The position numbers and the translations under genes were made by a program. A stretch of DNA of 32,502 nucleotides from IMG/VR virus record IMGVR_UViG_2636415833_000004; one strand, 5' to 3'. The stretch is from a virus. Lineage: Duplodnaviria; Heunggongvirae; Uroviricota; Caudoviricetes. The number at the start of each line of letters is the position of its first letter. The stretch's first letter is position 1. The notes under the pieces were generated by a model. The model searched no databases. It had not been told where the DNA came from and was given only the letters and a program-made list of their open reading frames with translations. Of this stretch, positions 1 to 25,886 are shown piece by piece.

Positions 1-237
1 ATGTACACCTATAAGATGATACAAGTACCGCCCAATATCTCAGTTAAAGCACGTGACAACAAAGCAGGAATAGCAGCAGCTTACCTTCAAGACGTGGTAA
101 ACGAACAAGCCGCCAACGGCTGGGAGTTTCAGCGGATAGACACTATTGGGATTGAAGAAAAGCCAGGGTGTTTCGGTGGCAGCAAGACAAACTTTACTCA
201 GTACTACGTTATCACTTTTAGAAAAGAAGTGGATTAA
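1..237 (+). CDS. DUF4177-like small protein (hypothetical)
   Basis: ATG at 1; 78 aa; sequence pattern (YK..V...GWE...small beta-rich domain) resembles DUF4177 proteins from memory; stop overlaps next start (TAATG). Confidence 0.45.
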   Translation: MYTYKMIQVPPNISVKARDNKAGIAAAYLQDVVNEQAANGWEFQRIDTIGIEEKPGCFGGSKTNFTQYYVITFRKEVD

Positions 238-452
238 TGTTAAAAGTCTTGAGTATTCGCCTTGTGTTGTTCTACCGAGCACATGCGCCAATGAATATTC
301 GTAACAGATGTCGTCACACCCCATCTTGTTCAAAATACACACTGATTGCATTAAAGCGTTTTGGATTCGTAAAGGGGTGGAAACTAGGTTTAAAGCGGAT
401 TTATCGTTGCCGTCCACCGAATGGCGGTATTGACTACCCGCCACACAAGTAA
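237..452 (+). CDS. YidD-like membrane protein insertion efficiency factor homolog
   Basis: 71 aa with the CRxxPSCSxY ... G(W)KLGLKRIxRCxP ... GG.DYPP pattern characteristic of the YidD family; coupled to upstream ORF. Confidence 0.6.
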   Translation: MLKVLSIRLVLFYRAHAPMNIRNRCRHTPSCSKYTLIALKRFGFVKGWKLGLKRIYRCRPPNGGIDYPPHK

Positions 453-916: not shown

Positions 917-938
917 AAAAAAGCCCGCGCAGGCGGGC
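917..938 (-). terminator. rho-independent terminator ending the minus-strand late tail operon
   Basis: On minus strand GCCCGC-CTGC-GCGGGC hairpin (923..938) followed by TTTTTT (complement of 917..922), 13 nt after stop of the 951..2597 gene. Confidence 0.55.
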
Positions 939-950
939 AATGAGAAGGGA

Positions 951-2597
951 TTAGCGTTCTATGATGGGGGATAGCTGCGCATGTAGCGTTGCAGCATTGA
1001 CAGATTCAGCCGTAAACAATGCGGCGGTTGTAGGTGGGCTACTGGGGCCGCACTGGCAGTTATGGATGTGCGCAGCGTCAGCCGCTGCTAGCCGTTGAAC
1101 AACCATCATCAGGTTATCCAACAGCACAAAAATATTTATTGCGTCCGTGCCGGTCCAACTCTTTCCGGCTTCAAAATGCTGCAATTCTTTAGCCACGCTA
1201 CGCCGCAGCTTGCCGACGACTTCAACCAACTGCCCGCCGACAGCGTGCCGGTGATCTCCTCCTGCTCCGGTGTCAATATCACCTGCAGTCATCTGCTCAA
1301 TAGCGCCCAGGGTATGCAGGATATGCGACCCGCCAACCTGTAACACATCATCACCCGTTACGCTGGCGCGACGCTCCGCGACGTCCGTCTGTTCTTCATC
1401 CACCGTCAACTTTCGCACCCGCGCAACTTCGGTCAGTGCCTGATCGGTTTCGCGGCTGACATCGCCGCGACTGTTTGTCTTATGCAGAACGCCCGCGCGC
1501 GACTGCTGCACCTGCTCACCCGCAGCAACAGCAGGCAGCGTCAACCCCTGCGCCATTACCTGGCGGATGTGTGGGCGGTCCGGGCGTGCCTCACTGAATC
1601 CCAGTTCGACCAGTGTTCCCGGTGCTGGGTACTGCATCAAGCCGCTATCGCTTCCGCCAAACCCAACCGGCAACGGCACAGCCTGATAAACAGGGACCGT
1701 TTGATCTGGTTTCCCGTCTTCATCAAGTAACTGAACATTGACGGCAAAACGCGGACGGAATGGATCTGATATGTCGCTATGGCCGGTCGTGTCGCTGATA
1801 GCCTCAACGCGGCCAATTTTTGGCAGGTGTAAACCTGCGGCCAGTTCCGGAAACTCCTTTTCAGCCTGGCGGCGGAATTGCGATTTTTGCGCCTCGCGGC
1901 CTTTGCTGTCTGTTACTGCCCATTTGACTGACATCTGGTCATCAGTCAGATCGATACGCTTAACCCGCTGGCCGTTAACGACAGCGCCAGGCCGCAGTGA
2001 CGGCACGCACACGATCCGCATAGTGTCGCCGCCAGTCTGCTGATCAGAAAATCCGGGCGGTATCTCAACGGGCAATGACGGCCATCGGGATTCCTGCCAA
2101 CTACCAACAAACACAACACCTTCGGGCAACTGCTGCCAGATATAATCCGGGATAGAAAAAGCGCGCCCCAGGTTGTTTAGCAACTGATAGCCGCTGCCTG
2201 AATGGGTAAAGTTAGGGATCGGCGTATCGGTGTATTTCTGCCCGTCTGGCAGCGCAAACGCCAGCCCGCACTGTTCAGTAACCCAGTTACAGACATCCCG
2301 TAATGTTGGGTGCTGTATTGAACAGGGCATAGGGCGCGCCAGTATTCCCGTTAATTCACGCACCAGGATACGCTGCCAGCCCTTTTCCGCCTGCTGACTA
2401 CGCTCAACAATACCAGTGAACCAGCGCAGCATTTTTCCGGAATACCCCAGATCCAGCGCGACCATTTTTCCCTGTAAGTTTTCATCACCGGGGACCGTGA
2501 CAAAACCCAACCCAGCGCCGGACAACTCCAGCGCCAGATGTACATTAACCGGCGTTACCGTCTGCGAACCGATATAAAAACGGCTTGTTATCTTCAT
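951..2597 (-). CDS. phage tail-module protein, candidate baseplate hub (gpD-like); function uncertain
   Basis: 548-aa ORF, ATG start with ATGA overlap onto upstream gene, last gene of the tail operon; hub and spike genes are otherwise missing from the module (positional inference only). Confidence 0.4.
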   Translation of the reverse strand: MKITSRFYIGSQTVTPVNVHLALELSGAGLGFVTVPGDENLQGKMVALDLGYSGKMLRWFTGIVERSQQAEKGWQRILVRELTGILARPMPCSIQHPTLRDVCNWVTEQCGLAFALPDGQKYTDTPIPNFTHSGSGYQLLNNLGRAFSIPDYIWQQLPEGVVFVGSWQESRWPSLPVEIPPGFSDQQTGGDTMRIVCVPSLRPGAVVNGQRVKRIDLTDDQMSVKWAVTDSKGREAQKSQFRRQAEKEFPELAAGLHLPKIGRVEAISDTTGHSDISDPFRPRFAVNVQLLDEDGKPDQTVPVYQAVPLPVGFGGSDSGLMQYPAPGTLVELGFSEARPDRPHIRQVMAQGLTLPAVAAGEQVQQSRAGVLHKTNSRGDVSRETDQALTEVARVRKLTVDEEQTDVAERRASVTGDDVLQVGGSHILHTLGAIEQMTAGDIDTGAGGDHRHAVGGQLVEVVGKLRRSVAKELQHFEAGKSWTGTDAINIFVLLDNLMMVVQRLAAADAAHIHNCQCGPSSPPTTAALFTAESVNAATLHAQLSPIIER

Positions 2598-3229
2598 TTG
2601 TCTTTGTCCGTTTTGACAGCTGATCCGGCCGTACCGTTTGACGTCGTATCCGCTTTTGATTCAGACGGCGACGGGGCCAGCCAATCATCAATTTTTTTCC
2701 AGAATTTATCTGATGACGACATTTCAGTGTCTGGCGGTGTATTTTCCCCAGAAGATGCACCCGGCGTCGTAATACCTGGCGTTGTCTGCGAAACAACCCC
2801 GCCCAGTTTTGAAAATACGTTGGCCTCTTTTTTCTCCGGCACACTGCTGTACTCCCGCAGAGTGAACGACACGTTCCACGCCCGCAGTGAATCCGATTCC
2901 GGCGCGCTCAGACGCCCGGTGAATGTCGCCTGGCGCATGTTGATCGCCGTGGCGGTGAGATTAGAAACGCGGTAAACCGTCTGCTTTCCGCCCTCGTCCA
3001 CCCCTTCCGCCAGTTCAAAAATACGCGTAAGAAATTCAACATTACGAAACGGAATCACGCCGCTGACGTTTAATTCCTTTGCTTTTATCCCGCCCTCACT
3101 TTTCTGCGTTCCCGACGTCTGGCCAGACTGATCTTTGTCTTTGAACGGCAAAACAGCCTCCACTTTCAGATTCAGCATTTTTACCGTTTCGCCGTTCAGC
3201 GTTAAAATTACTGGGTGTCTCGTGCTCAT
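2594..3229 (-). CDS. hypothetical tail-module protein (Ser/Thr/Pro-rich C-terminus)
   Basis: 211-aa ORF, ATG start, ATGA-coupled on both sides within the late operon. Confidence 0.4.
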   Translation of the reverse strand: MSTRHPVILTLNGETVKMLNLKVEAVLPFKDKDQSGQTSGTQKSEGGIKAKELNVSGVIPFRNVEFLTRIFELAEGVDEGGKQTVYRVSNLTATAINMRQATFTGRLSAPESDSLRAWNVSFTLREYSSVPEKKEANVFSKLGGVVSQTTPGITTPGASSGENTPPDTEMSSSDKFWKKIDDWLAPSPSESKADTTSNGTAGSAVKTDKDK

Positions 3230-4095
3230 ATGCAGCCCTTCAAAAACGACAGATCCGCGCCAGTGAACAGCACGACAGCAGTAAAAATAAAAGAATGGCC
3301 GGGCGGGCTACTGGATTCCAGCGCAGACGCCAGTGACGCACCGCCACCGCTTCCCTTCCAGGACCAGACCTGCGCGGCGGTTTCGTTCAGCTTGTCAAAG
3401 TCACCAGCCAGATCAGAAACAGCCTTTTCACGCAGCTTTACCAGTTCCGCCAATGTATCGACCGGCGCGCGGGTTTTATGTGCGGCCAGCATCGCCATTT
3501 CTGACAACAGCAGGCGGCGCGATTCACGGTGATTTTTTTCGATCAGGTCGCCAGACTCCGGCCACGCCGGATAGGTCAGCGCGCCGGGGCGTTGCATTTT
3601 CTGGGATTCCTTGCCAGCGTGAGCGCGGGCGGTGTTCAGTGCCTGCGTAAATCCGGGGGCGGGCAAGGTGTCACAGACTTTTGTCAGCTTGCTAATGAAG
3701 TCCCCAATCTGACCAGCGCAAACAAGTAAACAAACGGCGTCACCGCCTGCGCCCATTCTCAGATCTGCACCATCGCGCAATTTTTCGGCCAGCCGTTTGA
3801 CGGCGTTCGGCGGGCTAAGATAAGTGCCGCTTTCTTCCTCCTTACCCGCGCCAAACGTCCAGTTATGAACGGCGATTTGCTGCCCGTTCGTTGTCAGTTT
3901 ATCCAGTTCGACGCGCAGATCGGCAACCTGATCCGCCTGCCCCGCCAATTCTGGCTGCGGCCACTGCGCCCGCGATTCCAGCGCGCGCAATGCGTTAATG
4001 CCAGGGGATGACAGCGACGACAACGCACCGTTTAACGTGTCATGCGGCGTTTTCACTTCATCCGGCAGTTTTAACTGTCCATTACTCCACGCCAT
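3226..4095 (-). CDS. hypothetical protein, unknown function
   Basis: Track start at 4188 is TTG with a 118-nt overlap; first ATGs at 4113 and 4095, the latter preceded by a GGGG Shine-Dalgarno-like element; no recognisable motif. Confidence 0.35.
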   Translation of the reverse strand: MAWSNGQLKLPDEVKTPHDTLNGALSSLSSPGINALRALESRAQWPQPELAGQADQVADLRVELDKLTTNGQQIAVHNWTFGAGKEEESGTYLSPPNAVKRLAEKLRDGADLRMGAGGDAVCLLVCAGQIGDFISKLTKVCDTLPAPGFTQALNTARAHAGKESQKMQRPGALTYPAWPESGDLIEKNHRESRRLLLSEMAMLAAHKTRAPVDTLAELVKLREKAVSDLAGDFDKLNETAAQVWSWKGSGGGASLASALESSSPPGHSFIFTAVVLFTGADLSFLKGCI

Positions 4096-4559
4096 GAATA
4101 ACCCCGCTCCCATTCGCTGGAAACCAGCGCGTGTAACTGGCCGGGCGAATAACGCCAGGCATCCCGTAACTGCATAAATTCGGCACAAAACTCGCTACAA
4201 AACCACTTTTCAGGATTCCCACGGCAAAACAGCAAAAAGCCGATAACCCCGGCGATGTCGTATTTTTTCCCCGCGTACAGGCGGTAAAAACTGGCGATTT
4301 CCTGCGGGCTGGCGCTGATTTCGATCAAGTCCCATTTGTCAGAGGGTAAAGGCATTGTTTTAGCCCTGACCCCGCCATCACGGAACGATGACGAATAGCA
4401 GGTAAAATCCGTGCCGACGTCGTAGCACTGCGGCCCCACGGCGATTTCACAATGTGAATACGGACTGCGGGTAACAAGGCGTGTCACCCAGTCCGCCAGG
4501 CTGGCTAGTCCGTTGTGATCGCTGCGGCCACGATAAAACGCAATAAACACCGCGTTCAT
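4071..4559 (-). CDS. putative permuted papain-fold (YiiX/YaeF, NlpC/P60-superfamily-like) cysteine peptidase/amidase
   Basis: Track start 4568 is GTG; ATG at 4559 forms ATGA overlap with tail fibre assembly gene stop; conserved-looking His (YSHCEIAV) before Cys (WFCSEFC), the order typical of permuted NlpC/P60 enzymes; assignment from memory. Confidence 0.4.
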   Translation of the reverse strand: MNAVFIAFYRGRSDHNGLASLADWVTRLVTRSPYSHCEIAVGPQCYDVGTDFTCYSSSFRDGGVRAKTMPLPSDKWDLIEISASPQEIASFYRLYAGKKYDIAGVIGFLLFCRGNPEKWFCSEFCAEFMQLRDAWRYSPGQLHALVSSEWERGYSWRGVMDS

Positions 4560-5158
4560 GGTTGCCACCCCAGGGACCAGTCGTAAGCCTCAACGGCGGC
4601 AATATCGCCCAGGGCATCCACTGCCGCAATATGCGCCTGCGCAACGGCAAACAAACGCATATCGTGTTCAATGGTCACAAACTCAAACTGTGCGGCGATT
4701 GCGTTGGTCAGTTCAATCAGCCCGTTATTTTTGGTTTGCCACATCAGACCGGGCGGAACCGCGCCCGCCTGTCCCATTTTTGCCAGCGTCATCTGCTGAA
4801 TGCGGCTGTTAGCGTCGCTATGGAAGCGATTCCCGTCGATCACGATGTAATCGGCGGTGACGGCGTCCCTATGTGCTTTTATATCCTGTTCAACCTGCGC
4901 TTTAATCTGCTTCAGCGCGGCGGCAAATGCTGCCGCGTCATAAATCCATTTATCACCGTCCAGGCGATAATATTCGCCCGGTGGCGGCGTTGTTACGAGC
5001 TTTCCAGCAGCGGGATTTACCCAGCAATCACGATCGCGGTAACGCCACTGCACATCCGTTAATTGCATGACCGTTTCAGGCAGAACAATGTCAAACTGAT
5101 CGGTGTCCAGCCATGCTAGGACCTTCATTGATTCAGAATCAAAATATACATATTTCAT
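4556..5158 (-). CDS. tail fibre assembly protein (gpG-like chaperone)
   Basis: 200-aa ORF immediately downstream of the tail fibre gene, ATG start; position and size typical of tail fibre assembly proteins. Confidence 0.6.
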   Translation of the reverse strand: MKYVYFDSESMKVLAWLDTDQFDIVLPETVMQLTDVQWRYRDRDCWVNPAAGKLVTTPPPGEYYRLDGDKWIYDAAAFAAALKQIKAQVEQDIKAHRDAVTADYIVIDGNRFHSDANSRIQQMTLAKMGQAGAVPPGLMWQTKNNGLIELTNAIAAQFEFVTIEHDMRLFAVAQAHIAAVDALGDIAAVEAYDWSLGWQP

Positions 5159-5161
5159 TGA

Positions 5162-7171
5162 TCACCATGACAATTTAACAAAACCCGGCGACCCATTGCC
5201 GCCCGGGAAACAGTTCGCACCAGAAGTCCCATAAGCACCAGCCGACCCGCCCGCACCGTATCCGGTGCCATTGTGACTACCACCGATAACCCCGCAACCA
5301 CCATCGCCATATACTGACGACGCTCCATTATTGCCCGCAGTGGCTTTTGTAGTACCAGTACCGCCAGTAGTACCACCATAACCACCAGAACCACCGGGTG
5401 ACGACACTCCCGAAAATGAAGACGCGCCGCCAGCAGTCCCCGAATTACCCTTGGTCATATTGCCTGCTGATGACGTGACTACGGTTCCCCCTACCCCCCC
5501 ACCTCCGACAACGACAGAAAGGACCGCGCCAGGTGTGACGGTGACAATTGTCGTCACCGGTTTTGACGCACCACCCCCACCACCAGAATATGCACCACCG
5601 CCACCGCCACCGCCGCCACCGCCGAGCACCTCTACCGACATTTTTTTTACACCGGCAGGGACAGTAAATGACCCATTCGCGGTGTACATTGCGTACTTAT
5701 TTAAGTAGCGCGCATCAGCATTTGTTACGGTGATAAAGTCCGGCGCGCCGGTAATATCCGACCAGGGGTGCTTATGGCTTGCGGCAGCTGCATTTACGTC
5801 GCTGTACGTCAGCGTGATGTCCGCTGACAACGCCTTATTGTTAACCTTGCGCGTTGTCGGAACGGCGTTTACATCGCTGTACGTCAGCGTGATGTCTGCT
5901 GACAGCGCCTTATTGTTCACCTTGCGCGTTGTCGGCACAGCGTTTACATCGCTGTACGTCAGCGTGATGTCTGCTGACAGCGCCTTATTGTTCACCTTGC
6001 GCGTTGTCGGCACAGCGTTTACGTCGCTGTACGTCAGCGTGATGTCCGCTGACAGCGGCTTATCGTTCACTTTGCGCGTTGTCGGCACGGCGTTTACATC
6101 GCTGTATGTCAGCGTAATGTCTGCTGACAGTGCCTTATTGTTCACCTTGCGCGTATCCTGCACCGCGTGAACAATGCGCGAATCATCCCCGGCAGCTACC
6201 GTCCCCGCCGCCGTTCCCACGTTACGGGTTGCAGAATTCCCCAGTTTTAAATTTTCGCGGGATTTCACTACATCATCCAGATCGGACAGATTTAGCGACC
6301 GGCGTAAATAGCGCTTATCCAGATCGTCACTGTTACGCACTGGCCGTAAATCAGTGACCGCCCCGTCTGCGGCAATTTCAGCGATTTTGAATACGTAGTG
6401 GGTTTTCCCCGCAGCGTCCGAATATTCAGCCAGATCGCCCGACGTAATAACGCAGATATCAGTGACCGGCACGCAGGCAGTCATGACAGACCCCTGCCAG
6501 ACAGTATCCAGCCAGACGGCGGCGGGTTTAGTCCCGATCGCGACATCCTGCGCGGCTTCGTTCGCCAATCGCAAACCGGCCACATAACCCAACCCAGGCA
6601 GGCAGTTATATTTCACCCCGCTACGTTGAACCAGCCACCCATCATCAAAAAACAGCGCACTGCCGTAATGATCGATATTCAGTAAACGCTGATAATCATC
6701 AATACCCGTCAGACGGGCGGTAAAATCGATCTGCCACGTTTCGGCAGGTGTATTAATCCCTGTCTTGTCTGCAGCACCGTTAAATTCAATCAAAAACGAG
6801 CGGGTAAACGCGTTTCCCTGTTCCGTCGCCGTCGTTTTCACCTTTTCCAGCGCCGGGACCGTTGTCACCATCGCTAAAAGGCCCGTTTTTTTGCAAATCA
6901 GTCCGATCCAGTTAAACGAAAAATTGCCGACGTTTGTTCCCAGGGTAAACGAGTACGCAACCGTGTTTTTATTAACCACGCCCGCAGCGTTGACGGATTC
7001 GCGGTAAACAATTTGCGCGGCATCCGGCAGACCGGCGTCACGGTTTATCACCGCATCCGGATCAAGGCCGGGCACATTAGCCAAAACAAATTCATCCAGC
7101 GAAATGTCGCCCGGCGTCAGCAGATCAGCGGCTTGCCATTGCTCAAACGCCGTCGTGATAATTGTTGCCAT
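5162..7171 (-). CDS. tail fibre protein with tandem 25-aa repeats and glycine-rich C-terminal domain
   Basis: 669 aa; N-terminus MATIITTAFEQW resembles P2 H-type fibre N-termini; five tandem copies of TRKVNNKALSADITLTYSDVNAVPT; C-terminal ~150 aa dominated by Gly runs. Confidence 0.75.
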   Translation of the reverse strand: MATIITTAFEQWQAADLLTPGDISLDEFVLANVPGLDPDAVINRDAGLPDAAQIVYRESVNAAGVVNKNTVAYSFTLGTNVGNFSFNWIGLICKKTGLLAMVTTVPALEKVKTTATEQGNAFTRSFLIEFNGAADKTGINTPAETWQIDFTARLTGIDDYQRLLNIDHYGSALFFDDGWLVQRSGVKYNCLPGLGYVAGLRLANEAAQDVAIGTKPAAVWLDTVWQGSVMTACVPVTDICVITSGDLAEYSDAAGKTHYVFKIAEIAADGAVTDLRPVRNSDDLDKRYLRRSLNLSDLDDVVKSRENLKLGNSATRNVGTAAGTVAAGDDSRIVHAVQDTRKVNNKALSADITLTYSDVNAVPTTRKVNDKPLSADITLTYSDVNAVPTTRKVNNKALSADITLTYSDVNAVPTTRKVNNKALSADITLTYSDVNAVPTTRKVNNKALSADITLTYSDVNAAAASHKHPWSDITGAPDFITVTNADARYLNKYAMYTANGSFTVPAGVKKMSVEVLGGGGGGGGGGAYSGGGGGASKPVTTIVTVTPGAVLSVVVGGGGVGGTVVTSSAGNMTKGNSGTAGGASSFSGVSSPGGSGGYGGTTGGTGTTKATAGNNGASSVYGDGGCGVIGGSHNGTGYGAGGSAGAYGTSGANCFPGGNGSPGFVKLSW
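5786..6154 (-). repeat. five tandem 75-bp in-frame coding repeats inside the tail fibre gene
   Basis: Near-identical 75-bp units visible directly in the DNA; encode aa ~340-462 of the fibre; not CRISPR (no spacers, fully coding). Confidence 0.85.
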
Positions 7172-7177
7172 TGTTAT

Positions 7178-7723
7178 TTATTCCCTGATAAGTGACGCGG
7201 CGTGACACACATAGTCATTGTGTACGCTGCCCGCCTGAATATTGATCGGCGTGGATGTTAACGACTGGAAGCGATAGCGGCGGCAGGTGCGCCCGTACTG
7301 CCGGACAATTTCACGCAGCAAATCACCGTGTTCAGAGATCTGCCTGTCGGTCAAATCCAACAAAATGACGTCCCAGTCAATACCGTCTACACGCTCATTT
7401 ATCCCGACAAAACCTATTTCCAGCCGTTCAAATATCCGGGCAAAACCCGCCGTGCTGCCTGCATCCTGCGCATTAATGAACGCGTAATTCACGCGGCGGC
7501 GGAACAGATCCAGCGGCTCCGCGTTTAAGCGGGTGACGTCACGCTGCCAAGCCAGCAAAAAGAGGATCGTTTCGTTACAGGTCAGCGCATCAAACTGCTG
7601 CAACGGCCAGCGCAGCCACGCGTCAAGCCAAAGCCAGAAACGTTTGCACGCTGCCGCCAGCTTTTGCGGTTCGCCTTTGTTCATCCAACAGGGCAATTTA
7701 ATGTTCATCATGCGCTGCCCCAT
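7178..7723 (-). CDS. baseplate/tail protein, P2 gpI-like
   Basis: 181 aa; LLAWQRDV segment resembles the LPWLAWAFSVD region of P2 gpI; located between J-like and fibre genes as in P2. Confidence 0.6.
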   Translation of the reverse strand: MGQRMMNIKLPCWMNKGEPQKLAAACKRFWLWLDAWLRWPLQQFDALTCNETILFLLAWQRDVTRLNAEPLDLFRRRVNYAFINAQDAGSTAGFARIFERLEIGFVGINERVDGIDWDVILLDLTDRQISEHGDLLREIVRQYGRTCRRYRFQSLTSTPINIQAGSVHNDYVCHAASLIRE

Positions 7724-8892
7724 TTCACGCTCAATGACCGCAAGCGCGGAATATTCAGTTCACTGACGATGTCATCAAGAGAAAATTCAACAGACGACAG
7801 GGCGGGAAACGCCTCGTGAATTTCTTCACCCAACTTAGAAAAGCCAAACCGCGACCAGGGCCACGTTTTGGTAACGTCATACGCTGAATTCTCACGAAAC
7901 GCGCAGCGCACCATGTTTTCAACGACCCCCGGCAGATCAGCACGTTCAGCATCGGTAATCATCGCGTTATCCGGGGTGTGAAGCGTCACTTCAAGTTCAT
8001 GAAAGGTTTCCGGCATAGGGAAACATTGCATATCGTCGCCGTGTCCGTGGTTTCCCTGCCCCATCACGTAATCATTTACGGCTGCAATAAACGGATCACT
8101 GATCACACCTGCATCCAGCAATAAATACGCGTTAGCTGTTCCCGGTCCGCGCGGGGCGTCATGTAAGAAGAAAATGCGATCGGTACTCAATCCGGCCACA
8201 CTGGCGATCGCAGAGCGGTACACGGCGTCAATGTGATAGTTACCCACGACGTTAAACTGGTTACGGATACGCGGGCGAAATTCGTCGTCAGACTCACGAT
8301 CAGCGCCTGGCTTCGTCAGCCAGTCATCGCCGGTCGTCACTTCCGCAACTCCTGCCACTGCGACGGGTAAAACATGGTAATAACCGGGCGCAAGGTTCCA
8401 GGCACTGCCCGCAGTGTCAGCCGTACAGGCGATCGATAGCTGCGCAATACCTGCGGGGATCATCGTCGTCGCATCCACAATCAGGCGATAAACTTCACCG
8501 TTAACGCGTTCGGTCTGAATGACAGTGCCTGCGGGAATTGTCACATTTTCATCGGCACTGGTTTTAATAAACGTCACCGCGCCCTGGGCGCACGTCGCCG
8601 CCTTACGTTCCAGACGGACCGCCCACGCCAGCAGGTCAAGCCACGTCCCAATCGCTGTAGCAACAAAAAGGTTAGTCAGAACCACATCTGCCAGCACGTC
8701 ACGCAGCCACAGCACCGGTTTAGTGACAATGGCGGAAATCAGACGCCAGAACGGCGACATTAACGACGTGTTAGTGACCAGCCCTTCGTCGTCGGCGACA
8801 GCCTGAAACTTCGCCTGAATTTCCTTTTCCGTACCCGGCAGGCCCGCGTCATCCAACAGGGCGCGGTAATCGGGTTTAGGTGCATCACTCAT
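7708..8892 (-). CDS. baseplate J-like protein
   Basis: Track start 8913 is TTG; ATG at 8892 has GAGG 7 nt upstream and an 8-nt overlap with upstream stop; W-J-I-H-G order as in P2. Confidence 0.6.
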   Translation of the reverse strand: MSDAPKPDYRALLDDAGLPGTEKEIQAKFQAVADDEGLVTNTSLMSPFWRLISAIVTKPVLWLRDVLADVVLTNLFVATAIGTWLDLLAWAVRLERKAATCAQGAVTFIKTSADENVTIPAGTVIQTERVNGEVYRLIVDATTMIPAGIAQLSIACTADTAGSAWNLAPGYYHVLPVAVAGVAEVTTGDDWLTKPGADRESDDEFRPRIRNQFNVVGNYHIDAVYRSAIASVAGLSTDRIFFLHDAPRGPGTANAYLLLDAGVISDPFIAAVNDYVMGQGNHGHGDDMQCFPMPETFHELEVTLHTPDNAMITDAERADLPGVVENMVRCAFRENSAYDVTKTWPWSRFGFSKLGEEIHEAFPALSSVEFSLDDIVSELNIPRLRSLSVKWGSA

Positions 8893-9220
8893 AAACAACC
8901 TCAACAGGATCAATCAGTCCGAATTCATACGTTTCTGCCGTCACAATGACGCGGCCTGCCGCTTCCTCATACACGCGCACCGTTCCGGGGATTAGGCGGT
9001 TATCCGTTTCCACCATCAGAATAATTTGCAGATAAACATCATTGCGCATGACAGCGGAACGCTGGCCGATAAGGTGCGTTGCCAGATTGCTTTCAATGAT
9101 GGCGTGTTTAATGTCCTGACCAATGCTGACGCGGTTGTCACATAGCGTTGGTTCACGTCCGGTATTCAAAAGAAAATCACCGTTAACAATTTTCAGATCG
9201 ATATACAGTTGTTCAGTCAT
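8885..9220 (-). CDS. small baseplate protein, candidate gpW/gp25-like
   Basis: 111 aa, ATGA-coupled to tape measure stop, immediately upstream of J-like gene; size and position fit gp25-like wedge proteins. Confidence 0.45.
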   Translation of the reverse strand: MTEQLYIDLKIVNGDFLLNTGREPTLCDNRVSIGQDIKHAIIESNLATHLIGQRSAVMRNDVYLQIILMVETDNRLIPGTVRVYEEAAGRVIVTAETYEFGLIDPVEVVYE

Positions 9221-11550
9221 CCCGCCGACATCTCCGCCATTTCCGCTATTTGCTGGGCGTCCTGCGCCTGCTGCACATACACATTGACGTTACCCACGCT
9301 GCGGCTGTTATTTATATTGGTCGTGCTTTTTGTTGTTTTGCTGCTGACGTTGGCTACACCCGGATCAAGCACCCCGCCGCGTAATACGGCTGGGCTGGAA
9401 GGTGGCGCAGGCGGCTGCGCGCCAGGGACAACAAACGCAGAGGCAACACCCGACACTGGCGCAACCAGGGGCGACGCGCCCCCCGGAATAGCGGCGGCAA
9501 CTGACGCCGCCTGCGCAGCCGTTCCCGTCTGGCCCGGCGCTGCGGTTCCTTTTAACTCAATGTTGACGCCGGGCAGTTTGTTTAACTGCTCAACAATGCC
9601 GTTATAGACGCCGAAAAATTGCTGGGCGATTGAATCCCACAAACCGGAAAACAACTGGCCGACCGACTCAACGCCCGACCTGAAAGCATCAGCAAATGAA
9701 AATTCAGAGAAAGCGGCGCAGACGCTGTTCCAGCCCGCGACCACATCCGGCCAGACCTTAACCAGCCAACTGACAGCACTGATCAGCAGATTGATCGGAA
9801 ACAGAATGGCGTCGAAAGCTGCAGCAACGACAGAACCGGCCATGCTGCCAGCGTCAGAAAAAGAGGACAGTTCATTTTCGGTATACTGAATCGGTGTCAG
9901 CAGGTCGCCAAACCAGCCGCAAAGACTTTTCAGGCCATTCCACAACCAACTAACCACGGAACAGACAGCAGAAAATACCGGCCCCAACGCGGCGATCACA
10001 CCTTGCAACACCTGCGACTTTTGCGCCGCCTGCATGAAGCCAGTGATAAAACCGCTGAAAAATGCCTTGATCGGATTCCAGAACTTAACGACAGCGACAA
10101 CAACCGCACCGATCGCCAGCGCAATAAGCGCAATCAGCCCCCAGATCGGGGCAGTGACTGCGGCCAGACTCCCGCCAAATGACATCAACGCAAGGCGCGC
10201 AGCAAATAAGGTGTTACGGAAAAACCGCAACGCCCCCGAAAAATTAAGAATTGCACCAGCACCACGCGCCAGAAGTTTAAACAGCGGGGTGATCCCGGTG
10301 AAAATCCCCGCCAGCCGGATTCCGGCCCCAGCCAACTTTAAACCGCCCAGCATGACCGTAAATGCGGCCCCGGCTGCGGTGGCGCTGATAATTGCTGCCG
10401 TAACAATCCCGATCCAGCGCGTAATGTTCGGGAATTTATTCAGCCAGACGACAGCCGACTGGGCGACCTTTGTCATTTTTATCAGTAGCGGTTCCAGAAC
10501 CGGCAACAACGCAGACCCCACAGCAATTTTTACCGCCGTAATACCTGCGGCGGCGCGCTCCCACGGATCGGCAACCGTGGCGGCGGCGCGTTTTACGTCG
10601 TCCAGCCCGTCGATCGCGTCGATCTCGCTGATACTGCGTTTCAGCCCGTCCGTATCGCTGATCAGCAACTTGATCAGGGAAACCGCTTCATCACTGCCAA
10701 ACGCTTTTTTCAGCAGGTCAGAATCCGCCACTTTGCTGATATTCCCGAACCGCTTATGCAGCATGTCGAGAATTGCAGGCATTGACTTCATTTGCCCGGT
10801 GGCATCGGTAAACGACATTTTCAGCGTTTTCTGGGCGTTCCCTACCCCCGCCAGAAACGCCTTATATTTTGTCCCGGCTTCACTGCCTGACATTGTTGAC
10901 TGCAACTGACCCAGGATCGCGAATTGTTCCGCACTGCTGCGGCCTGCTGTTTGCGCAGCGGCCCCCAGTGACGTAAACGCCTGCGACATTGATTCACCGT
11001 CAGATTTAAACAGGTTGGCCGCATAGGCGGTTTGCCCGCCGATTTTCTCAGCCCATTTAATTTTGCCCATGCCGTCAGCAGTCTGTTTAAAGATGCCGTA
11101 CATGGTCCCCATATAGTTTGTGATCGTCTGCGTATCGGCCTTTGTCGCCTTTGCAACAACCGCTGACGTGGTTGTGAATCCGGTCAATTCATCAGCAGAC
11201 AATCCAGAAATTGCGGACTGAATATCGTAAGACGCGCTGACGATCTCCGCCGCGCTGCCGCCGTACTGCATACTGAATTGAAGCGCCGCGTTTTTAAGCT
11301 GCTTTAATCCCGTTTCGGTTACGTCCAGCGCCTTTACAGAGTCCAGCGCGCGGCGCATTTCGATCGCCGGTTCCAGCCCGCCTTTTAATGCCTGGCCTGC
11401 GGCCCACATTGCCGCCGTTCCCATTGCAACCTGCTGCGCGCCGCTTTTTGCCGTCTGGCCCAGTGCGCTGACCTGCTGACGAATACCGCGCAGTGGGGCG
11501 CTTGCGCGGTCAATCAGAGAAATAATATAAGTCAGCGATTCACTAGCCAT
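9217..11550 (-). CDS. tail tape measure protein
   Basis: 777 aa, Ala/Gly-rich with extended helical and hydrophobic segments, directly downstream of chaperone gene with frameshift signature. Confidence 0.8.
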   Translation of the reverse strand: MASESLTYIISLIDRASAPLRGIRQQVSALGQTAKSGAQQVAMGTAAMWAAGQALKGGLEPAIEMRRALDSVKALDVTETGLKQLKNAALQFSMQYGGSAAEIVSASYDIQSAISGLSADELTGFTTTSAVVAKATKADTQTITNYMGTMYGIFKQTADGMGKIKWAEKIGGQTAYAANLFKSDGESMSQAFTSLGAAAQTAGRSSAEQFAILGQLQSTMSGSEAGTKYKAFLAGVGNAQKTLKMSFTDATGQMKSMPAILDMLHKRFGNISKVADSDLLKKAFGSDEAVSLIKLLISDTDGLKRSISEIDAIDGLDDVKRAAATVADPWERAAAGITAVKIAVGSALLPVLEPLLIKMTKVAQSAVVWLNKFPNITRWIGIVTAAIISATAAGAAFTVMLGGLKLAGAGIRLAGIFTGITPLFKLLARGAGAILNFSGALRFFRNTLFAARLALMSFGGSLAAVTAPIWGLIALIALAIGAVVVAVVKFWNPIKAFFSGFITGFMQAAQKSQVLQGVIAALGPVFSAVCSVVSWLWNGLKSLCGWFGDLLTPIQYTENELSSFSDAGSMAGSVVAAAFDAILFPINLLISAVSWLVKVWPDVVAGWNSVCAAFSEFSFADAFRSGVESVGQLFSGLWDSIAQQFFGVYNGIVEQLNKLPGVNIELKGTAAPGQTGTAAQAASVAAAIPGGASPLVAPVSGVASAFVVPGAQPPAPPSSPAVLRGGVLDPGVANVSSKTTKSTTNINNSRSVGNVNVYVQQAQDAQQIAEMAEMSAG

Positions 11551-21484: not shown

Positions 21485-21798
21485 TGGCTAAACGGTTAAA
21501 ATATACCCCGCTCAAAAATAGATTAAGGGGAAACAAATTGCGCAGCCCGAAAATTATCTGTCCGGAATGCAACGGCAATTCAACGATCAAAAAGACCGTG
21601 CGGAAACATCCCCATCTATCAGATGTTTATTGCGCCTGTAATAACGTTGAGTGCGGTCATACTTTCGTCGTTAATATAACATTTTCTCACACATTAAGCC
21701 CCAGCGCGCTTTCATCTGACCGCGCTATCAAAACGCTGATCGATATGATGTCGCCAGAACAAAAACAAAAAACATTATACCTGTTGTTACCAAGCTAA
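21484..21798 (+). CDS. ogr: Ogr/Delta-family zinc-finger late transcription activator
   Basis: CPEC...YCACNNVECGHTF matches the Ogr C-x2-C ... C-x4-C zinc finger (YHQCQNVNCSATF in P2); ATG overlaps Q stop (TAATG); alternative TTG start at 21538 with AAGGGG upstream. Confidence 0.65.
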   Translation: MAKRLKYTPLKNRLRGNKLRSPKIICPECNGNSTIKKTVRKHPHLSDVYCACNNVECGHTFVVNITFSHTLSPSALSSDRAIKTLIDMMSPEQKQKTLYLLLPS

Positions 21799-21830
21799 AA
21801 AAAGGGCAGATTTGAACTGCCCATTATCTT
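21797..21830 (-). terminator. rho-independent terminator between convergent ogr-like and cargo genes, strongest on minus strand
   Basis: GGGCAG (21804..21809) / CTGCCC (21817..21822) stem with 7-nt loop; A7 on plus strand gives U7 on minus strand directly after the hairpin. Confidence 0.65.
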
Positions 21831-23151
21831 ATTCAGTCCCCTTTTCCATCTGCTGTGGCTTATCTGCAACTACAGAGGGTTTAGCCTTACGATCAAGGAT
21901 ATTTTTAACATAGTTTACATTATCAATCGAAGAATCAAGAAATTTAGAAAAAGCTTTAGAGTTTAACATTTCCATCCATGGTGTTGAGTGATCATCACCT
22001 TGGACAAATCTTAATGGGGCTTCCTCTAGACGGGTTAAAGCAGAATCAAACAACCGAGTAGCGAATGTTCCATCATCAAGTTGCGATGCTTCTTTTCTGT
22101 AACCCTCATATGCTTTTGCAACGGCAGACTTAAAGGCATAATCTTCTGCTAGCTTAAATCTTTGATTAATTTGCTTTGTAGACAACCACGCAAACCAAAG
22201 CGGCGCGCCGATACTAAATATGGATAGTATTAATTGCGTTGCAATCACTATTGCACTGGTATCTGGTTGCGCTAAAACATTGGATAATGCTTTTAACCTT
22301 TCATAACCAACAAACCCACCGGCAATTAATGCCGCAGATAATCCTGCTACCCATAAACGAATGCTACAGTTTAACTTATTCGCTTTGATCTCAAAAGCTC
22401 CCGCTAACCCTTTTGAAGTCGAAGCACGAATAGCTTCCTCACATTTCGAAAGATAATTTTCTGCGATCTCTTTTTTTGCATTTAACTCTTCTTTTATCTT
22501 TTCCCCTTCGTTTAGACAAACATCCATTAAGACATTCGAATGAGATGCTTCTTCTTTTGCCTTTAAAATGTACTCTTTTATTTCCGTTAATTCTGCCTTG
22601 TATTTATTTAACTCTTCCATATATACCGGTAGATTATCAGCTGCGGCATATGCATCGTTAATCAATTTAATTTTACCTTCCAGTGTTTCAATTTCTGGAG
22701 TAGCTTGTCTTACTCTTGCATCCATACTCCGTATTTTACGTGCTAATTTCTGAGGTACGGCATCCGTATCCTGGAGTCGGTCGAAGGAAATCAAAGAATC
22801 TAAAAATGAAGATATATATGTCATGGTCATTAAAAATGAAGGAATCGCTTGTACACCATTTCCATTATAAAAGCTAGGAGCAAGGTCAGAATGTACCTTT
22901 GTTACGACTTTTCTTACATAGTCGAGTTCATCTAGTTCGAAATCAGTTAATTTAAGCATCTCTAATTTTTTTGACTTCTCGATCATTCTTTCAATATAGT
23001 CAGAAAAGTCTTTTGGCAACATTACAGGATGACCGATGCCAAATGCTTCTATAAGCCATTTATTTTTATGCCCATATGATTTTTCAGACTCATCAAAATA
23101 ATCTTTTAATTTATCTAGAGCATTTATAAATTCATTTAACTCAGCGTACAT
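21829..23151 (-). CDS. hypothetical coiled-coil / two-transmembrane-helix protein; candidate accessory (defence or exclusion) gene
   Basis: 440 aa, ATG with GAGGT 5 nt upstream; visibly AT-rich; coiled-coil N-terminal half, two hydrophobic helices (aa ~265-283 and ~299-323), ~115-aa C-terminal domain; no similarity recognised to phage core proteins. Confidence 0.75.
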   Translation of the reverse strand: MYAELNEFINALDKLKDYFDESEKSYGHKNKWLIEAFGIGHPVMLPKDFSDYIERMIEKSKKLEMLKLTDFELDELDYVRKVVTKVHSDLAPSFYNGNGVQAIPSFLMTMTYISSFLDSLISFDRLQDTDAVPQKLARKIRSMDARVRQATPEIETLEGKIKLINDAYAAADNLPVYMEELNKYKAELTEIKEYILKAKEEASHSNVLMDVCLNEGEKIKEELNAKKEIAENYLSKCEEAIRASTSKGLAGAFEIKANKLNCSIRLWVAGLSAALIAGGFVGYERLKALSNVLAQPDTSAIVIATQLILSIFSIGAPLWFAWLSTKQINQRFKLAEDYAFKSAVAKAYEGYRKEASQLDDGTFATRLFDSALTRLEEAPLRFVQGDDHSTPWMEMLNSKAFSKFLDSSIDNVNYVKNILDRKAKPSVVADKPQQMEKGTE

Positions 23152-23321
23152 ATTTTACCTCAAGCCATTTTATATTTTATACTTGCAGAACAAATATAAG
23201 CCTAAATTAATAATATACCTTCCATTGCTGACAATAATAAACCATGCATCAATTCCGCTGATATTACCAAATCTGCTTGAGTAAATCGCCTATAACTTCT
23301 CTCCTAAAATAACATTAACAT
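23152..23321 (-). promoter_or_regulatory. AT-rich promoter region upstream of the cargo gene
   Basis: 170-bp AT-rich intergenic region; minus strand carries tandem TATAAAAT -10-like motifs shortly upstream of the SD. Confidence 0.35.
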
Positions 23322-25886
23322 TCATACGGTTACCACAGCCCGCCAGCGCGCCATCAGTTCCACAGTTTGTTTTTTCGCCAGCACACGCCGCCACGGCTGG
23401 AACGTGTCAATCAGGATCAGTTCGCCGGTGTTCATGTTAGCCCGGTAAACGTTGTCAATAACTGTCGCCTGTCCGCCTTGCGCCAGTGCCAGCGATTGCG
23501 CGCGGCCCAGCGGTATTTTGCGCAATTTCGCCCACTCCATGACGCGCGCGGCCAGTTCTGCCGCTGCAGCCGTGACCGGTTTTTCAGTCTCGCGAATGAC
23601 CGCCGCCGCACGTAAATAATTTTCTGCGCGCAGCTGGTCCGCGCCCGAACAGTCCGCCGTCGCTAATTGATTCGCCAGCGCTTCGAACTCGTCAGCAGCC
23701 GATTGTTTACGCTGTTTTTTGTGCGTCAGACACTCAGCGCGCAGGCGTTTGCGTTGTTCCCGTGTCAATTTGCCGATCAGAACCTGTTCGGGATCTCCCG
23801 GTGGCGGCGCACCGCTGTTTTTCTCTCCCAAAAAGTCCGCTTCACTGTTTATATTTTGTTCATCTTTTGCTGTTTTTTCATGCTCCGTACAGTTATTGAC
23901 ACGAGTCCTAGCGGGCGCAGACGCGCCCTTAAGGTCAAAAGATGAACAGCCATCACCGGGGCGCTCCGCGCTCTCCGGCGATTTTTTAACAATGCGAAAA
24001 TCCCGCAACCTGGTTATTACCGGCGGGATATTAATCAGCGGCATAAATACACCGCGGATAACCGTCAGATATTCGCCCCAGCTGTTAGGCTCCGGTTTAT
24101 CCTGATAAAACGTGCGCAACGGTAAATCCGCGCGTTTTGCCAGCGGTCCGCCCATGAGATTAACAAACCCGCCCCAATCCCCCGCGTCCGCTGCGGCGTG
24201 GATCTCGGCAAACAGCGGATTAATCTGATCAGCGGCCTGTTGATTCCCCAGCCTCCGCAGTTCGCGGTACACCGACACCGGCACACCGCCCAAAAACTGG
24301 AACTGCCTGATCCCCCACGTAGACGCCCACGCGGTCGCATGTTGCGCCGTGTCTTTCAGTGGACGTCCGCTTTCGTCGTCGCGCTCATTATCCAGCGCGT
24401 AACCGTCGATATTTTTAGAGACGTATTTGACGATATAGCCCGTAGCGGTTCCCCGCTCGGGATCAATCGGTTTGAAATCGAAACGCGGCTGTATGCCGTG
24501 TTTCGTCGTTAATTCGTCGGCGTCCTCAGCTGTTGCGTAACGCTGCATGACGTCGCGTAGCGCCTCCTGATGCTCCGGCAGAGTGAATAACAGGCCGTGC
24601 CAGTGCGGCGTTGCGTCGTGATGCGCCTCGGCTACACGTAAGCCAAAAGCGCCGATTTCCTGGCGCGCCAGCTCGGCGCGGATACGCTGCCAAATGGTAT
24701 TCAGGTATTTTTGAGACTCGCGCGGGCTAGCGCCTTGCCACTTAGGATTACGATGACCAAACGCGGTAAACGCGTGATATTTTGACGGCGCGGTAATAGT
24801 AAAAAAGCTGCCGACAAATCCCTGCTCATTGGCTACTCGCTCAAAACCGCCGATTCGCGTCATAAGCTCGGTGCGGCGTATCGCTGGATTGGACGCGCTT
24901 TTTTCTATCTGCTCCAGCAGTGAAAAACGCTCGCCTGATTCAACGTCTTCTATTTCCAGTCTTGACATGATGTCGCGATTACGCTCGCGACGCTCCCGCC
25001 ACGCATTCACGCGTTCTTTACTACAATAGGTTGACACGCTGCGGCGCACGTCGCCCAGGGAGATCCGCAAATGCTCCCGCCAGCGCACGGCGTAACGCAG
25101 TAAATTGCGGTTCCAGTAGCGCGCGTCGATCATTTTGCTGATCGCTGCCGCCAGCTCGTCGGGCAACAAGCGTTTTTTGTTTGCCCTTGCCGCCGTGACG
25201 TGAAAAACGTTAGCCAACGTTTTCAATTCAGCGTAAAACCGCCGGCCAGTTTCGATTTCGTCCAGGTGTTCACAATCTGCGGCAATTTCTGCCAGTGTGG
25301 CGTTTGCGTAAATTGCGACGTCCTGCGCCAGTAATTCAACATCCTCCGGCGAATAATCAGGCAGTGTGTCGAAACGACGGATCAGATCGGTGAGTTGTTC
25401 AAAATTGTGATAGAGCGGCTCAAGGCCAACAAACGGCGTTTCATAAACCCGCCCAGCATTGCGGGGCGGGCTTATGGAATACTGCTGCATAACGGCGGAA
25501 ATGTGGATTAATTCGCGGCTGGCGATATCTCGCAGCGCCAGCGCCGCGACGTGTCGCCCCTGCTTTTCGTGAGAACGTTCAACGCGCGCCATCATGCGGC
25601 GGCGGATGAATGTCGGATATGGCTGAAAAGTGGATTTTACACGCTGCCAGAATTCGTATTCTGCGGCGAACTCCTGCGGATCATGTTTCGGCGTCCGGTC
25701 AACGCTAATTGCTGCGCGCGGGGCGTTCCACGCGTATGGATACAGTGTAGTGTCTGCGCCGCTCCCCAGGAACGGGGGCGGCGGTGTTGGGGCGTAGCGT
25801 CCGCGCGTCAATTGATAGACGCCAGCCACAGAGCAGCGAATGGATCGATTTCGTTGTAATAGGCGGTCATAAATCCGCCTCTTCAA
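23322..25886 (-). CDS. A: replication initiation protein, P2 gpA-like (rolling-circle HUH endonuclease); true start uncertain
   Basis: YAWNAPR near N-terminus, TPHWHGLLF (HUH) and YIVKYVSKNIDGYALD (active-site Tyr) match remembered P2 A motifs; track start 25886 is TTG, an internal GTG near 25829 fits the P2 alignment. Confidence 0.85.
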   Translation of the reverse strand: MKRRIYDRLLQRNRSIRCSVAGVYQLTRGRYAPTPPPPFLGSGADTTLYPYAWNAPRAAISVDRTPKHDPQEFAAEYEFWQRVKSTFQPYPTFIRRRMMARVERSHEKQGRHVAALALRDIASRELIHISAVMQQYSISPPRNAGRVYETPFVGLEPLYHNFEQLTDLIRRFDTLPDYSPEDVELLAQDVAIYANATLAEIAADCEHLDEIETGRRFYAELKTLANVFHVTAARANKKRLLPDELAAAISKMIDARYWNRNLLRYAVRWREHLRISLGDVRRSVSTYCSKERVNAWRERRERNRDIMSRLEIEDVESGERFSLLEQIEKSASNPAIRRTELMTRIGGFERVANEQGFVGSFFTITAPSKYHAFTAFGHRNPKWQGASPRESQKYLNTIWQRIRAELARQEIGAFGLRVAEAHHDATPHWHGLLFTLPEHQEALRDVMQRYATAEDADELTTKHGIQPRFDFKPIDPERGTATGYIVKYVSKNIDGYALDNERDDESGRPLKDTAQHATAWASTWGIRQFQFLGGVPVSVYRELRRLGNQQAADQINPLFAEIHAAADAGDWGGFVNLMGGPLAKRADLPLRTFYQDKPEPNSWGEYLTVIRGVFMPLINIPPVITRLRDFRIVKKSPESAERPGDGCSSFDLKGASAPARTRVNNCTEHEKTAKDEQNINSEADFLGEKNSGAPPPGDPEQVLIGKLTREQRKRLRAECLTHKKQRKQSAADEFEALANQLATADCSGADQLRAENYLRAAAVIRETEKPVTAAAAELAARVMEWAKLRKIPLGRAQSLALAQGGQATVIDNVYRANMNTGELILIDTFQPWRRVLAKKQTVELMARWRAVVTV

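Follow-up and report, generated by a model that had tools for sequence, protein, structure and literature searches.

A chaperone-coupled gene for a predicted permuted papain-fold cysteine hydrolase in the tail-fibre module of an HP1/K139-type Escherichia coli prophage

An experimentally studied counterpart of the gene treated here occurs in the marine Alteromonas myovirus V22, where a fibre gene (open reading frame, ORF, 26) is followed by a gene for a DUF4376 chaperone (ORF27) and by ORF28, annotated as 'permuted papain-like amidase', the start of which overlaps the stop of ORF27. The V22 paper lists ORF28 merely as a 'viral metabolism-related' gene without studying it (PMC7289586). We found the same arrangement in the IMG/VR virus record IMGVR_UViG_2636415833_000004, a stretch of 32,502 nucleotides (nt) that was analyzed as a whole, is termed the window in the following and represents a complete HP1/K139-type (Peduoviridae) prophage of E. 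coli. Here, a gene for a protein of 162 amino acids (aa) (4071..4559, minus strand), predicted to be a cysteine hydrolase and called the hydrolase from here on, is situated directly downstream of a DUF4376 tail-fibre chaperone gene (4556..5158) on the same strand, and the two share a 4-nt ATGA stop/start overlap (4556..4559). The DUF4376 chaperone gene and, behind it, the 162-aa gene make up a two-gene module that moves jointly among P2-, Mu- and HP1-like myophages, lambda-like siphophages and marine phage V22. V22 ORF28 is homologous to the 162-aa family (hhalign probability 96.9%, E 1.5e-10), resembling the window hydrolase in gene order and stop/start overlap and differing from it in size (136 aa), in sequence (about 25% identity) and in its closer proximity to Pfam PF05708 (family C92), to which it forms a bridge with a score of 19.8 bits, i.e. 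below threshold.

In terms of fold, the closest described enzymes are the YiiX-type members of the permuted NlpC/P60 clade, in which His49, Tyr115 and Cys128 are the catalytic residues according to Xu et al. (PMC3142127). A sequence-only reading of the window had noted a His (YSHCEIAV) upstream of a Cys (WFCSEFC) in the 162-aa product and had proposed a permuted, YiiX-type papain fold on this basis, which our analysis bears out. His36 precedes Cys121, a family profile retrieves 3kw0 from the PDB (E 0.0099) with ySHCeIav pairing with fSHtgIiv and fCSEf with iCSEF, and hhalign of the family against a YiiX-family profile (E 3e-4) places H36, Y100 and C121 opposite YiiX H49, Y115 and C128. The candidate catalytic codons are located on the minus strand at 4454-4452 (His36), 4262-4260 (Tyr100) and 4199-4197 (Cys121). 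Ten residues are invariant in a 31-sequence homologue alignment (H36, C37, E38, C54, D61, Y100, D101, C121, S122 and E123). An AlphaFold2 model built on 31 homologues reaches a predicted local distance difference test score (pLDDT) of 87.5 and a predicted template modelling score (pTM) of 0.84, and the topology is the permuted one, the catalytic His being located on an N-terminal strand and the Cys where a C-terminal helix begins. The canonical NlpC/P60 arrangement was not found, the order being His36 and then Cys121, and domain scans yielded no NlpC_P60, SH3 or LysM match. Pfam PF05708 (gathering threshold 27 bits) did not match the window protein either and was reached by a single one of 31 homologues, at E 0.092. 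By the Pfam threshold the protein falls outside C92, and it represents a remote relative within the same permuted clade.

The comparison with YiiX-type enzymes is instructive in both directions. Common to both are the permuted His-before-Cys order and the SH..I, D-G-V-R and CSE motifs. The window hydrolase differs in being shorter (162 versus 195-202 aa), in the absence of the conserved acidic third residue and in carrying Cys37, Cys54, Asp61 and Asp101 as additional family invariants; furthermore, it is a phage protein whose gene is coupled to that of a tail-fibre chaperone, while YiiX comes from a stand-alone chromosomal gene. The lipid-targeting permuted NlpC/P60 proteins Tox-Act1 and TseH (phospholipases of type VI secretion systems), LRAT/PLAAT and MARTX RID are far more remote; they are toxins that are secreted or enzymes of eukaryotes, and neither their accessory elements nor their genomic contexts are those of the window hydrolase. 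Judged from motifs and profile alignments, the 162-aa protein is best described as a soluble, cytoplasmic permuted NlpC/P60 papain-fold enzyme with Cys121/His36 and the conserved Tyr100 intact.

The two minus-strand ORFs of the sequence-only reading, 4559..4071 (162 aa) and 4095..3226 (289 aa), were confirmed with these coordinates. Both are real genes under purifying selection and no chance ORFs: at E<=1e-3, 327 homologues of the 162-aa protein were retrieved, the 289-aa protein is related to 126 cluster representatives (50% clustering) at the same cutoff in an exhaustive HMMER search, and the ratios of nonsynonymous to synonymous substitution rates (dN/dS) relative to a sibling prophage amount to 0.16 and 0.24, respectively, values that are based on only seven to eight differences each. 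GC content and GC content at third codon positions (GC3) of both genes resemble those of the neighbouring genes, in agreement with the earlier impression that nothing in them looks foreign. Neither a transmembrane segment nor a signal peptide is evident from the sequence of either protein, no Pfam, NCBIfam or PADLOC model matches them, and PDB searches with the single sequences returned chance matches only. In PHROGs, the 162-aa family corresponds to phrog_1128, carries the name 'enoyl-CoA hydratase/carnithine racemase-like' and is filed under 'moron, auxiliary metabolic gene and host takeover'. We reject this name as a misnomer propagated from old Haemophilus annotations, for which fold and motifs give no support. 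Fold labels have been attached automatically before: a metagenomic annotation reads 'cysteine peptidase', and the V22 protein is termed 'permuted papain-like amidase'. A description of the family, a curated model or a report of systematic coupling to DUF4376 chaperones was not found in our literature and database search.

The pairing of hydrolase and chaperone emerges from searches in both directions. When the hydrolase served as the starting point, 94 loci fell into 34 clusters at 80% identity, and a chaperone-like ORF abuts the hydrolase gene in 31 of these. The upstream neighbour is constant while the downstream neighbour varies, and among the 34 representatives of the upstream protein Pfam recognizes DUF4376 in 23 and Caudo_TAP in six. 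In a collection with one genome per species the pairing recurs in 65 of 75 loci from Enterobacterales, Neisseriaceae, Pasteurellaceae, Moraxellaceae and others, with a homologue of the 289-aa protein, the orthologue of HP1 orf33, nearby in just one of them. The reverse test rested on 80 loci fetched solely by two motifs of the chaperone's DUF4376 domain; the 34-sequence chaperone alignment had proven too variable as a seed for locus searches, and a narrower sequence set worked. The hydrolase directly follows the chaperone in about 64 of the 77 loci that have downstream sequence. Both partners diverge together, as chaperones that are only 30-40% identical precede correspondingly divergent hydrolases. 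Most junctions are tight: 49 of 69 non-identical chaperone/hydrolase junctions are 4-nt overlaps of the ATGA type and a further eight are 8-nt overlaps. A fusion of chaperone and hydrolase in a single ORF does not occur among 179 loci.

The DUF4376 gene-hydrolase pair is embedded in unrelated tail architectures. In a Mu-like Salmonella prophage it is followed by com and mom, in the Mu-like Haemophilus phage SuMu (homologue gp51) by com and then a methylase, and in Mu-like wastewater contigs by two small unassigned ORFs and then DNA methylases. The sheath gene comes next in a P2-like Neisseria prophage, a small ORF and then gpL in the siphophage Moraxella Mcat7, and a holin gene in Acidovorax AP1, a podophage according to PMC11597636.

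A natural exchange between close relatives shows which part of the module the hydrolase goes with. When the window is compared with its sibling prophage in E. coli LZSFT34 in steps of 150 nt, identity amounts to 95-100% except for the stretch from about 4650 to 6400, where it drops to 43-83%. Affected are the C-terminal two thirds of the fibre and the chaperone's N-terminal portion. Between the two prophages, the hydrolase shows 100% identity and the DUF4376-encoding end of the chaperone gene 89-92%. The swap of the host-range cassette is clean, its right-hand breakpoint residing within the chaperone gene upstream of the DUF4376-encoding end. As the exchange left the hydrolase untouched, it speaks against an enzyme that destroys or masks a specific receptor and in favour of a general function connected with the DUF4376 domain.

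Expression of the hydrolase appears to follow that of the tail genes. Between 500 and 7400, four promoter-like sites were detected, compared to 5.1 expected by chance, and in this interval no promoter serving the 162-aa gene could be placed, the exception being a weak 9/12 match within the chaperone gene. A convincing terminator was seen solely behind the last of the baseplate genes. Since orf33-35 of the same operon have to be expressed late, late production of the hydrolase along with the tail genes is almost certain.

What could be the task of such an enzyme? DUF4376 chaperones are structurally similar to self-cleaving intramolecular chaperone domains and have been proposed as transient fibre caps (PMC10579305), and the Mu chaperone Tfa remains on the fibre tip (PMC7882524). 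The S1 pockets of permuted NlpC/P60 enzymes are hydrophobic, and those enzymes of the group that have been characterised act as lipid amidases, phospholipases or acyltransferases (PMC3142127; PMC12994826), an activity profile that favours an acyl- or lipid-linked substrate over peptidoglycan. Most likely, the hydrolase partners the DUF4376 domain of a chaperone that stays on, or transiently caps, the fibre tip, either in a complex with this domain or by acting on it. Its chemistry would be a thiol-mediated cleavage or transfer of acyl or amide bonds, making it a hydrolase or an acyltransferase, probably with acyl/amide rather than cell-wall specificity by analogy with its relatives. The substrate might be an envelope molecule with an acyl or lipid linkage that is encountered by the fibre tip, or else the fibre-chaperone complex itself, which would be uncapped or modified, and this role would be independent of the receptor recognized by the fibre. 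Taken as a whole, an explanation in which a late, chaperone-coupled acyl/amide hydrolase belongs to the host-recognition module and the 289-aa protein is the orf33 orthologue has, in our estimation, a slightly better than even chance of being correct.

Phages and tailocins are retargeted by swapping their tail fibres and fibre chaperones, and the module is usually counted as two genes. That a catalytically intact enzyme remains translationally coupled to the DUF4376 chaperone in phages of Enterobacterales, Neisseriaceae, Pasteurellaceae and Moraxellaceae and in marine Alteromonas phages points to a third participant, which may have a bearing on how the fibre matures or is uncapped or on how the envelope is first contacted. 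We put forward, tentatively and with rather low confidence, that many phages possess a third, so far overlooked enzymatic host-recognition component, a cysteine acyl-hydrolase or acyltransferase that would sit on the DUF4376 chaperone at the fibre tip and would either covalently modify the fibre or uncap it, or else remodel outer-membrane lipid or glycolipid locally in the course of adsorption, irrespective of the receptor bound.

Several observations weigh against a chaperone-coupled acyl/amide hydrolase. Our literature search found no experiment on any member of the 162-aa family, a physical interaction of hydrolase and chaperone is suggested by gene linkage, and the lipid/acyl specificity is extrapolated from relatives. 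When co-expressed in E. coli with the chaperone alone, the V22 fibre fused to green fluorescent protein (GFP) binds host cells (PMC7289586), which means that neither folding of the fibre nor receptor binding requires the hydrolase in this assay. At the active site, Glu64, the third member of the triad in YiiX/BcPPNE, pairs with Ser57 (S/A), Tyr55 or Ser56 depending on the method, and a conserved acid on the equivalent strand was not found in the 162-aa family, the register of the alignment being uncertain there. Possibly, His36 is oriented by another residue, or the enzyme works with a dyad instead of a triad, as has been reported for PPPDE1 and LRAT (PMC3142127). The linkage itself has exceptions. 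On the P2-like IMG/VR contig 3300013182_000039 (3629-4399), a DUF4376 chaperone of 51% identity is followed by a Dam-type methylase, sheath and tube, which indicates that the slot behind the chaperone can also carry true cargo. About ten more distant chaperone loci lack a hydrolase, in two loci the hydrolase directly follows the fibre gene, and the upstream protein in phage pAN has no recognizable match. In the Ralstonia jumbo phage RP12 (hydrolase gene at 4995-5438) and its relatives RP31 and the FLC phages (jumbo phages of about 280 kilobases), divergent homologues (about 31% identity) are encoded by solitary genes on the strand opposite to that of the neighbouring genes, and neither a fibre nor a chaperone gene is close by. 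Finally, the locus counts are phylogenetically non-independent, though the pattern crosses very different phage lineages.

One rival explanation assigns the enzyme to the uncapping or maturation of the fibre: the hydrolase would be a protease that acts after trimerisation, either cleaving or removing the DUF4376 cap or trimming the C-terminus of the fibre. Such a protease would be the trans equivalent of intramolecular chaperone self-cleavage. A papain fold is a peptidase fold, the likeness of DUF4376 chaperones to self-cleaving domains and their proposed function as transient caps fit well, and so do the tight 1:1 translational coupling, the co-divergence with the chaperone and the fact that the hydrolase follows the conserved DUF4376 end and not the fibre tip. 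Such an uncapping protease is nevertheless unlikely in our view, given that the V22 fibre is functional and its chaperone dissociates already without the hydrolase (PMC7289586), that characterised permuted members cut acyl and lipid bonds but not peptides (PMC3142127; PMC12994826) and that cleavage products are not known from any fibre or chaperone of this group.

A second rival sees in the hydrolase accessory cargo that serves superinfection exclusion, host takeover or lysis, for example as a cytoplasmic phospholipase, and that hitch-hikes on fibre cassettes as P2 Z/fun does. P2 Z/fun is an independently expressed lysogenic-conversion gene, and what it has in common with the window hydrolase is position only, directly behind the tail-fibre assembly gene; the window hydrolase differs from it by its chaperone-coupled translation, the absence of a promoter of its own and its conservation as part of a pair. 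The absence of the hydrolase from HP1, K139, phiO18P and YenM324 as well as from some close chaperone relatives, such as that on contig 3300013182_000039, marks it as dispensable. The idea is also in line with the PHROGs category, with the P2-like Neisseria prophage, where the hydrolase, flanked by the assembly and sheath genes, occupies precisely the Z/fun position, and with AP1 and pAN, the hydrolases of which adjoin lysis genes. The sequence-only reading had likewise considered accessory cargo. Such a gene would hardly be expected to depend on translational coupling inside a late operon that ends at 938-923, with promoter-like signals not above chance level and with neither promoter nor terminator of its own. 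Furthermore, most of the 69 non-identical junctions, which come from distant lineages, retain the ATGA overlap with the chaperone gene, the upstream neighbour stays constant while downstream neighbours vary, co-divergence with the chaperone down to 30% identity is unexpected for random cargo, and PADLOC gave no match for any of four genes. All in all, we consider cargo an improbable explanation.

NlpC/P60 proteins are best known as cell-wall endopeptidases, and tail-associated NlpC/P60 domains exist, for example in lambda gpK. Together with the position of the gene in a tail module this could point at a virion-associated peptidoglycan hydrolase that aids penetration of the cell wall by the tail, as envisaged by the sequence-only reading, yet we regard this as highly improbable because the topology is permuted and work on permuted members favours acyl/lipid over peptide substrates (PMC3142127; PMC12994826), the genetic partner is a chaperone at the distal fibre tip, far from peptidoglycan, and not a hub or spike protein, the domain scan revealed no cell-wall-binding domain, and the phage already has a holin and an M15 endolysin.

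The explanation favoured above, a chaperone-coupled hydrolase of the host-recognition module, leaves the 289-aa gene (3226..4095, minus strand, ATG start) to a different context. The 289-aa protein is the orthologue of HP1 orf33 and K139 orf37, a core late tail gene of HP1-type phages. Its match to phrog_1677 spans the entire length (E 7e-60), tblastn identified HP1 orf33 (2e-24) and K139 orf37 (1e-17), and further relatives are HP2 orf33, Kappa KP43, phiO18P gp44, F108 and enterobacterial ESSI-2-like phages; homology to HP1 orf33, K139 orf37 and Kappa KP43 extends over the full length or residues 67-289. A word-indexed search returned seven close relatives only, and exhaustive HMMER was needed to recover the family. 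Homologues of orf33 are always found directly before the ORF34 and ORF35 hub/spike genes at the end of the late operon. In HP1, K139, phiO18P and Yersinia phage YenM324, HP1-like phages from four genera, the genes for fibre and assembly protein are followed by orf33, orf34 and orf35 and the hydrolase is absent; orf33 thus comes right after the fibre-assembly gene in these phages, whereas in the window the hydrolase gene is inserted between the two. A check of presence and absence across related phages, suggested along with the sequence-only reading, therefore gives a different answer for each gene, the 289-aa gene being constant in HP1-like phages and the 162-aa gene absent from the four just named.

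In the sequence-only reading the two genes had figured as a coupled, unassigned pair in a variable, Z/fun-like locus. The coupling stands insofar as they share 25 nt. They do not form one unit and neither is without assignment, as the 289-aa gene is simply the fixed core gene orf33 and the 162-aa gene pairs with the upstream chaperone. Our analysis hence corrects a misleading 'enoyl-CoA hydratase/carnithine racemase-like' name for one gene and identifies the other as plain HP1 orf33. No known fold matches the 289-aa protein. Conservation in the small orf33 family is low (a single invariant column among 30 sequences), as would suit a structural protein. Recognizable homologues of P2 gpU, gpD, gpV and gpX were not found in HP1-type tails. 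We infer that orf33, orf34 and orf35 jointly supply hub-proximal parts of the baseplate, with orf33 as a structural or assembly component.

The order of the late genes, all on the minus strand, was derived from the annotated sibling prophage in E. coli LZSFT34 and from our own domain and PHROG scans. Capsid and terminase genes come first and are followed by tail completion genes, the genes for a DUF2586 sheath and the tube, holin and M15 endolysin, a tail chaperone, the tape measure (9217..11550), a DUF2590 protein and the baseplate proteins J (7708..8913) and I (7178..7723). The tail fibre of 669 aa (5162..7171) has a collar-type N-terminus (PF12571) and a glycine-rich C-terminal domain (PF21722) at residues of about 500-669; five near-identical tandem units of about 25 aa each (TRKVNNKALSADITLTYSDVNAVPT) make up residues of about 375-500. 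Next are the fibre assembly protein/chaperone with 200 aa and the C-terminal DUF4376 domain (PF14301, E 3.4e-12), the hydrolase, which starts with ATG, and the 289-aa orf33 orthologue. The operon is completed by an HP1 ORF34-family 'baseplate complex protein' of 211 aa (2594..3229; PF25759, E 2.9e-53) and an HP1 ORF35-family baseplate hub/spike protein of 548 aa (951..2597; phrog_2258, E 4.9e-206), the genes for the 289-, 211- and 548-aa proteins being joined by 4-nt overlaps. The hub/spike protein is weakly VgrG-like, as indicated by weak VgrG matches in the PDB and a sub-threshold match of HP1 orf35 to the Phage_base_V OB domain. A terminator-like hairpin (GCCCGCCTGCGCGGGC followed by a T-run) at 923..938 closes the operon, and K139 has an annotated terminator at the equivalent position.

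Prophages of this kind are rare, occurring in seven of 5,426 complete E. coli genomes. The region of interest is 99.9% identical to a prophage of E. coli 40EC, and megablast against a phage collection returned no match for it. Beyond the operon terminator, the left end of the window (1-452) contains a 78-aa ORF and a 71-aa YidD-like ORF, and the same pair is located between chromosomal yeaE and the prophage in E. coli LZSFT34. The two may be cargo of the phage or belong to the flanking host DNA. An island of low GC content (0.35-0.40 compared to about 0.55 in the flanks) extends from about 21500 to 23500, between the ogr-like and gpA replication genes. It carries an ORF of 440 aa (21829..23151, minus strand) for which the Pfam scan gave no match; in LZSFT34 a HEPN-domain protein occupies its slot, suggesting a variable hotspot for defence or moron genes.

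The hub/spike gene also contains, at 2350-2381 (plus-strand coordinates), a perfect 32-nt match to the spacer GTTAATTCACGCACCAGGATACGCTGCCAGCC, which is present in type I-E arrays of clustered regularly interspaced short palindromic repeats (CRISPR) in about 20 complete E. coli genomes. The protospacer is followed by CTT on the plus strand, corresponding to the canonical AAG protospacer adjacent motif (PAM) on the target strand. The prophage lineage of the window appears to be a natural CRISPR target.

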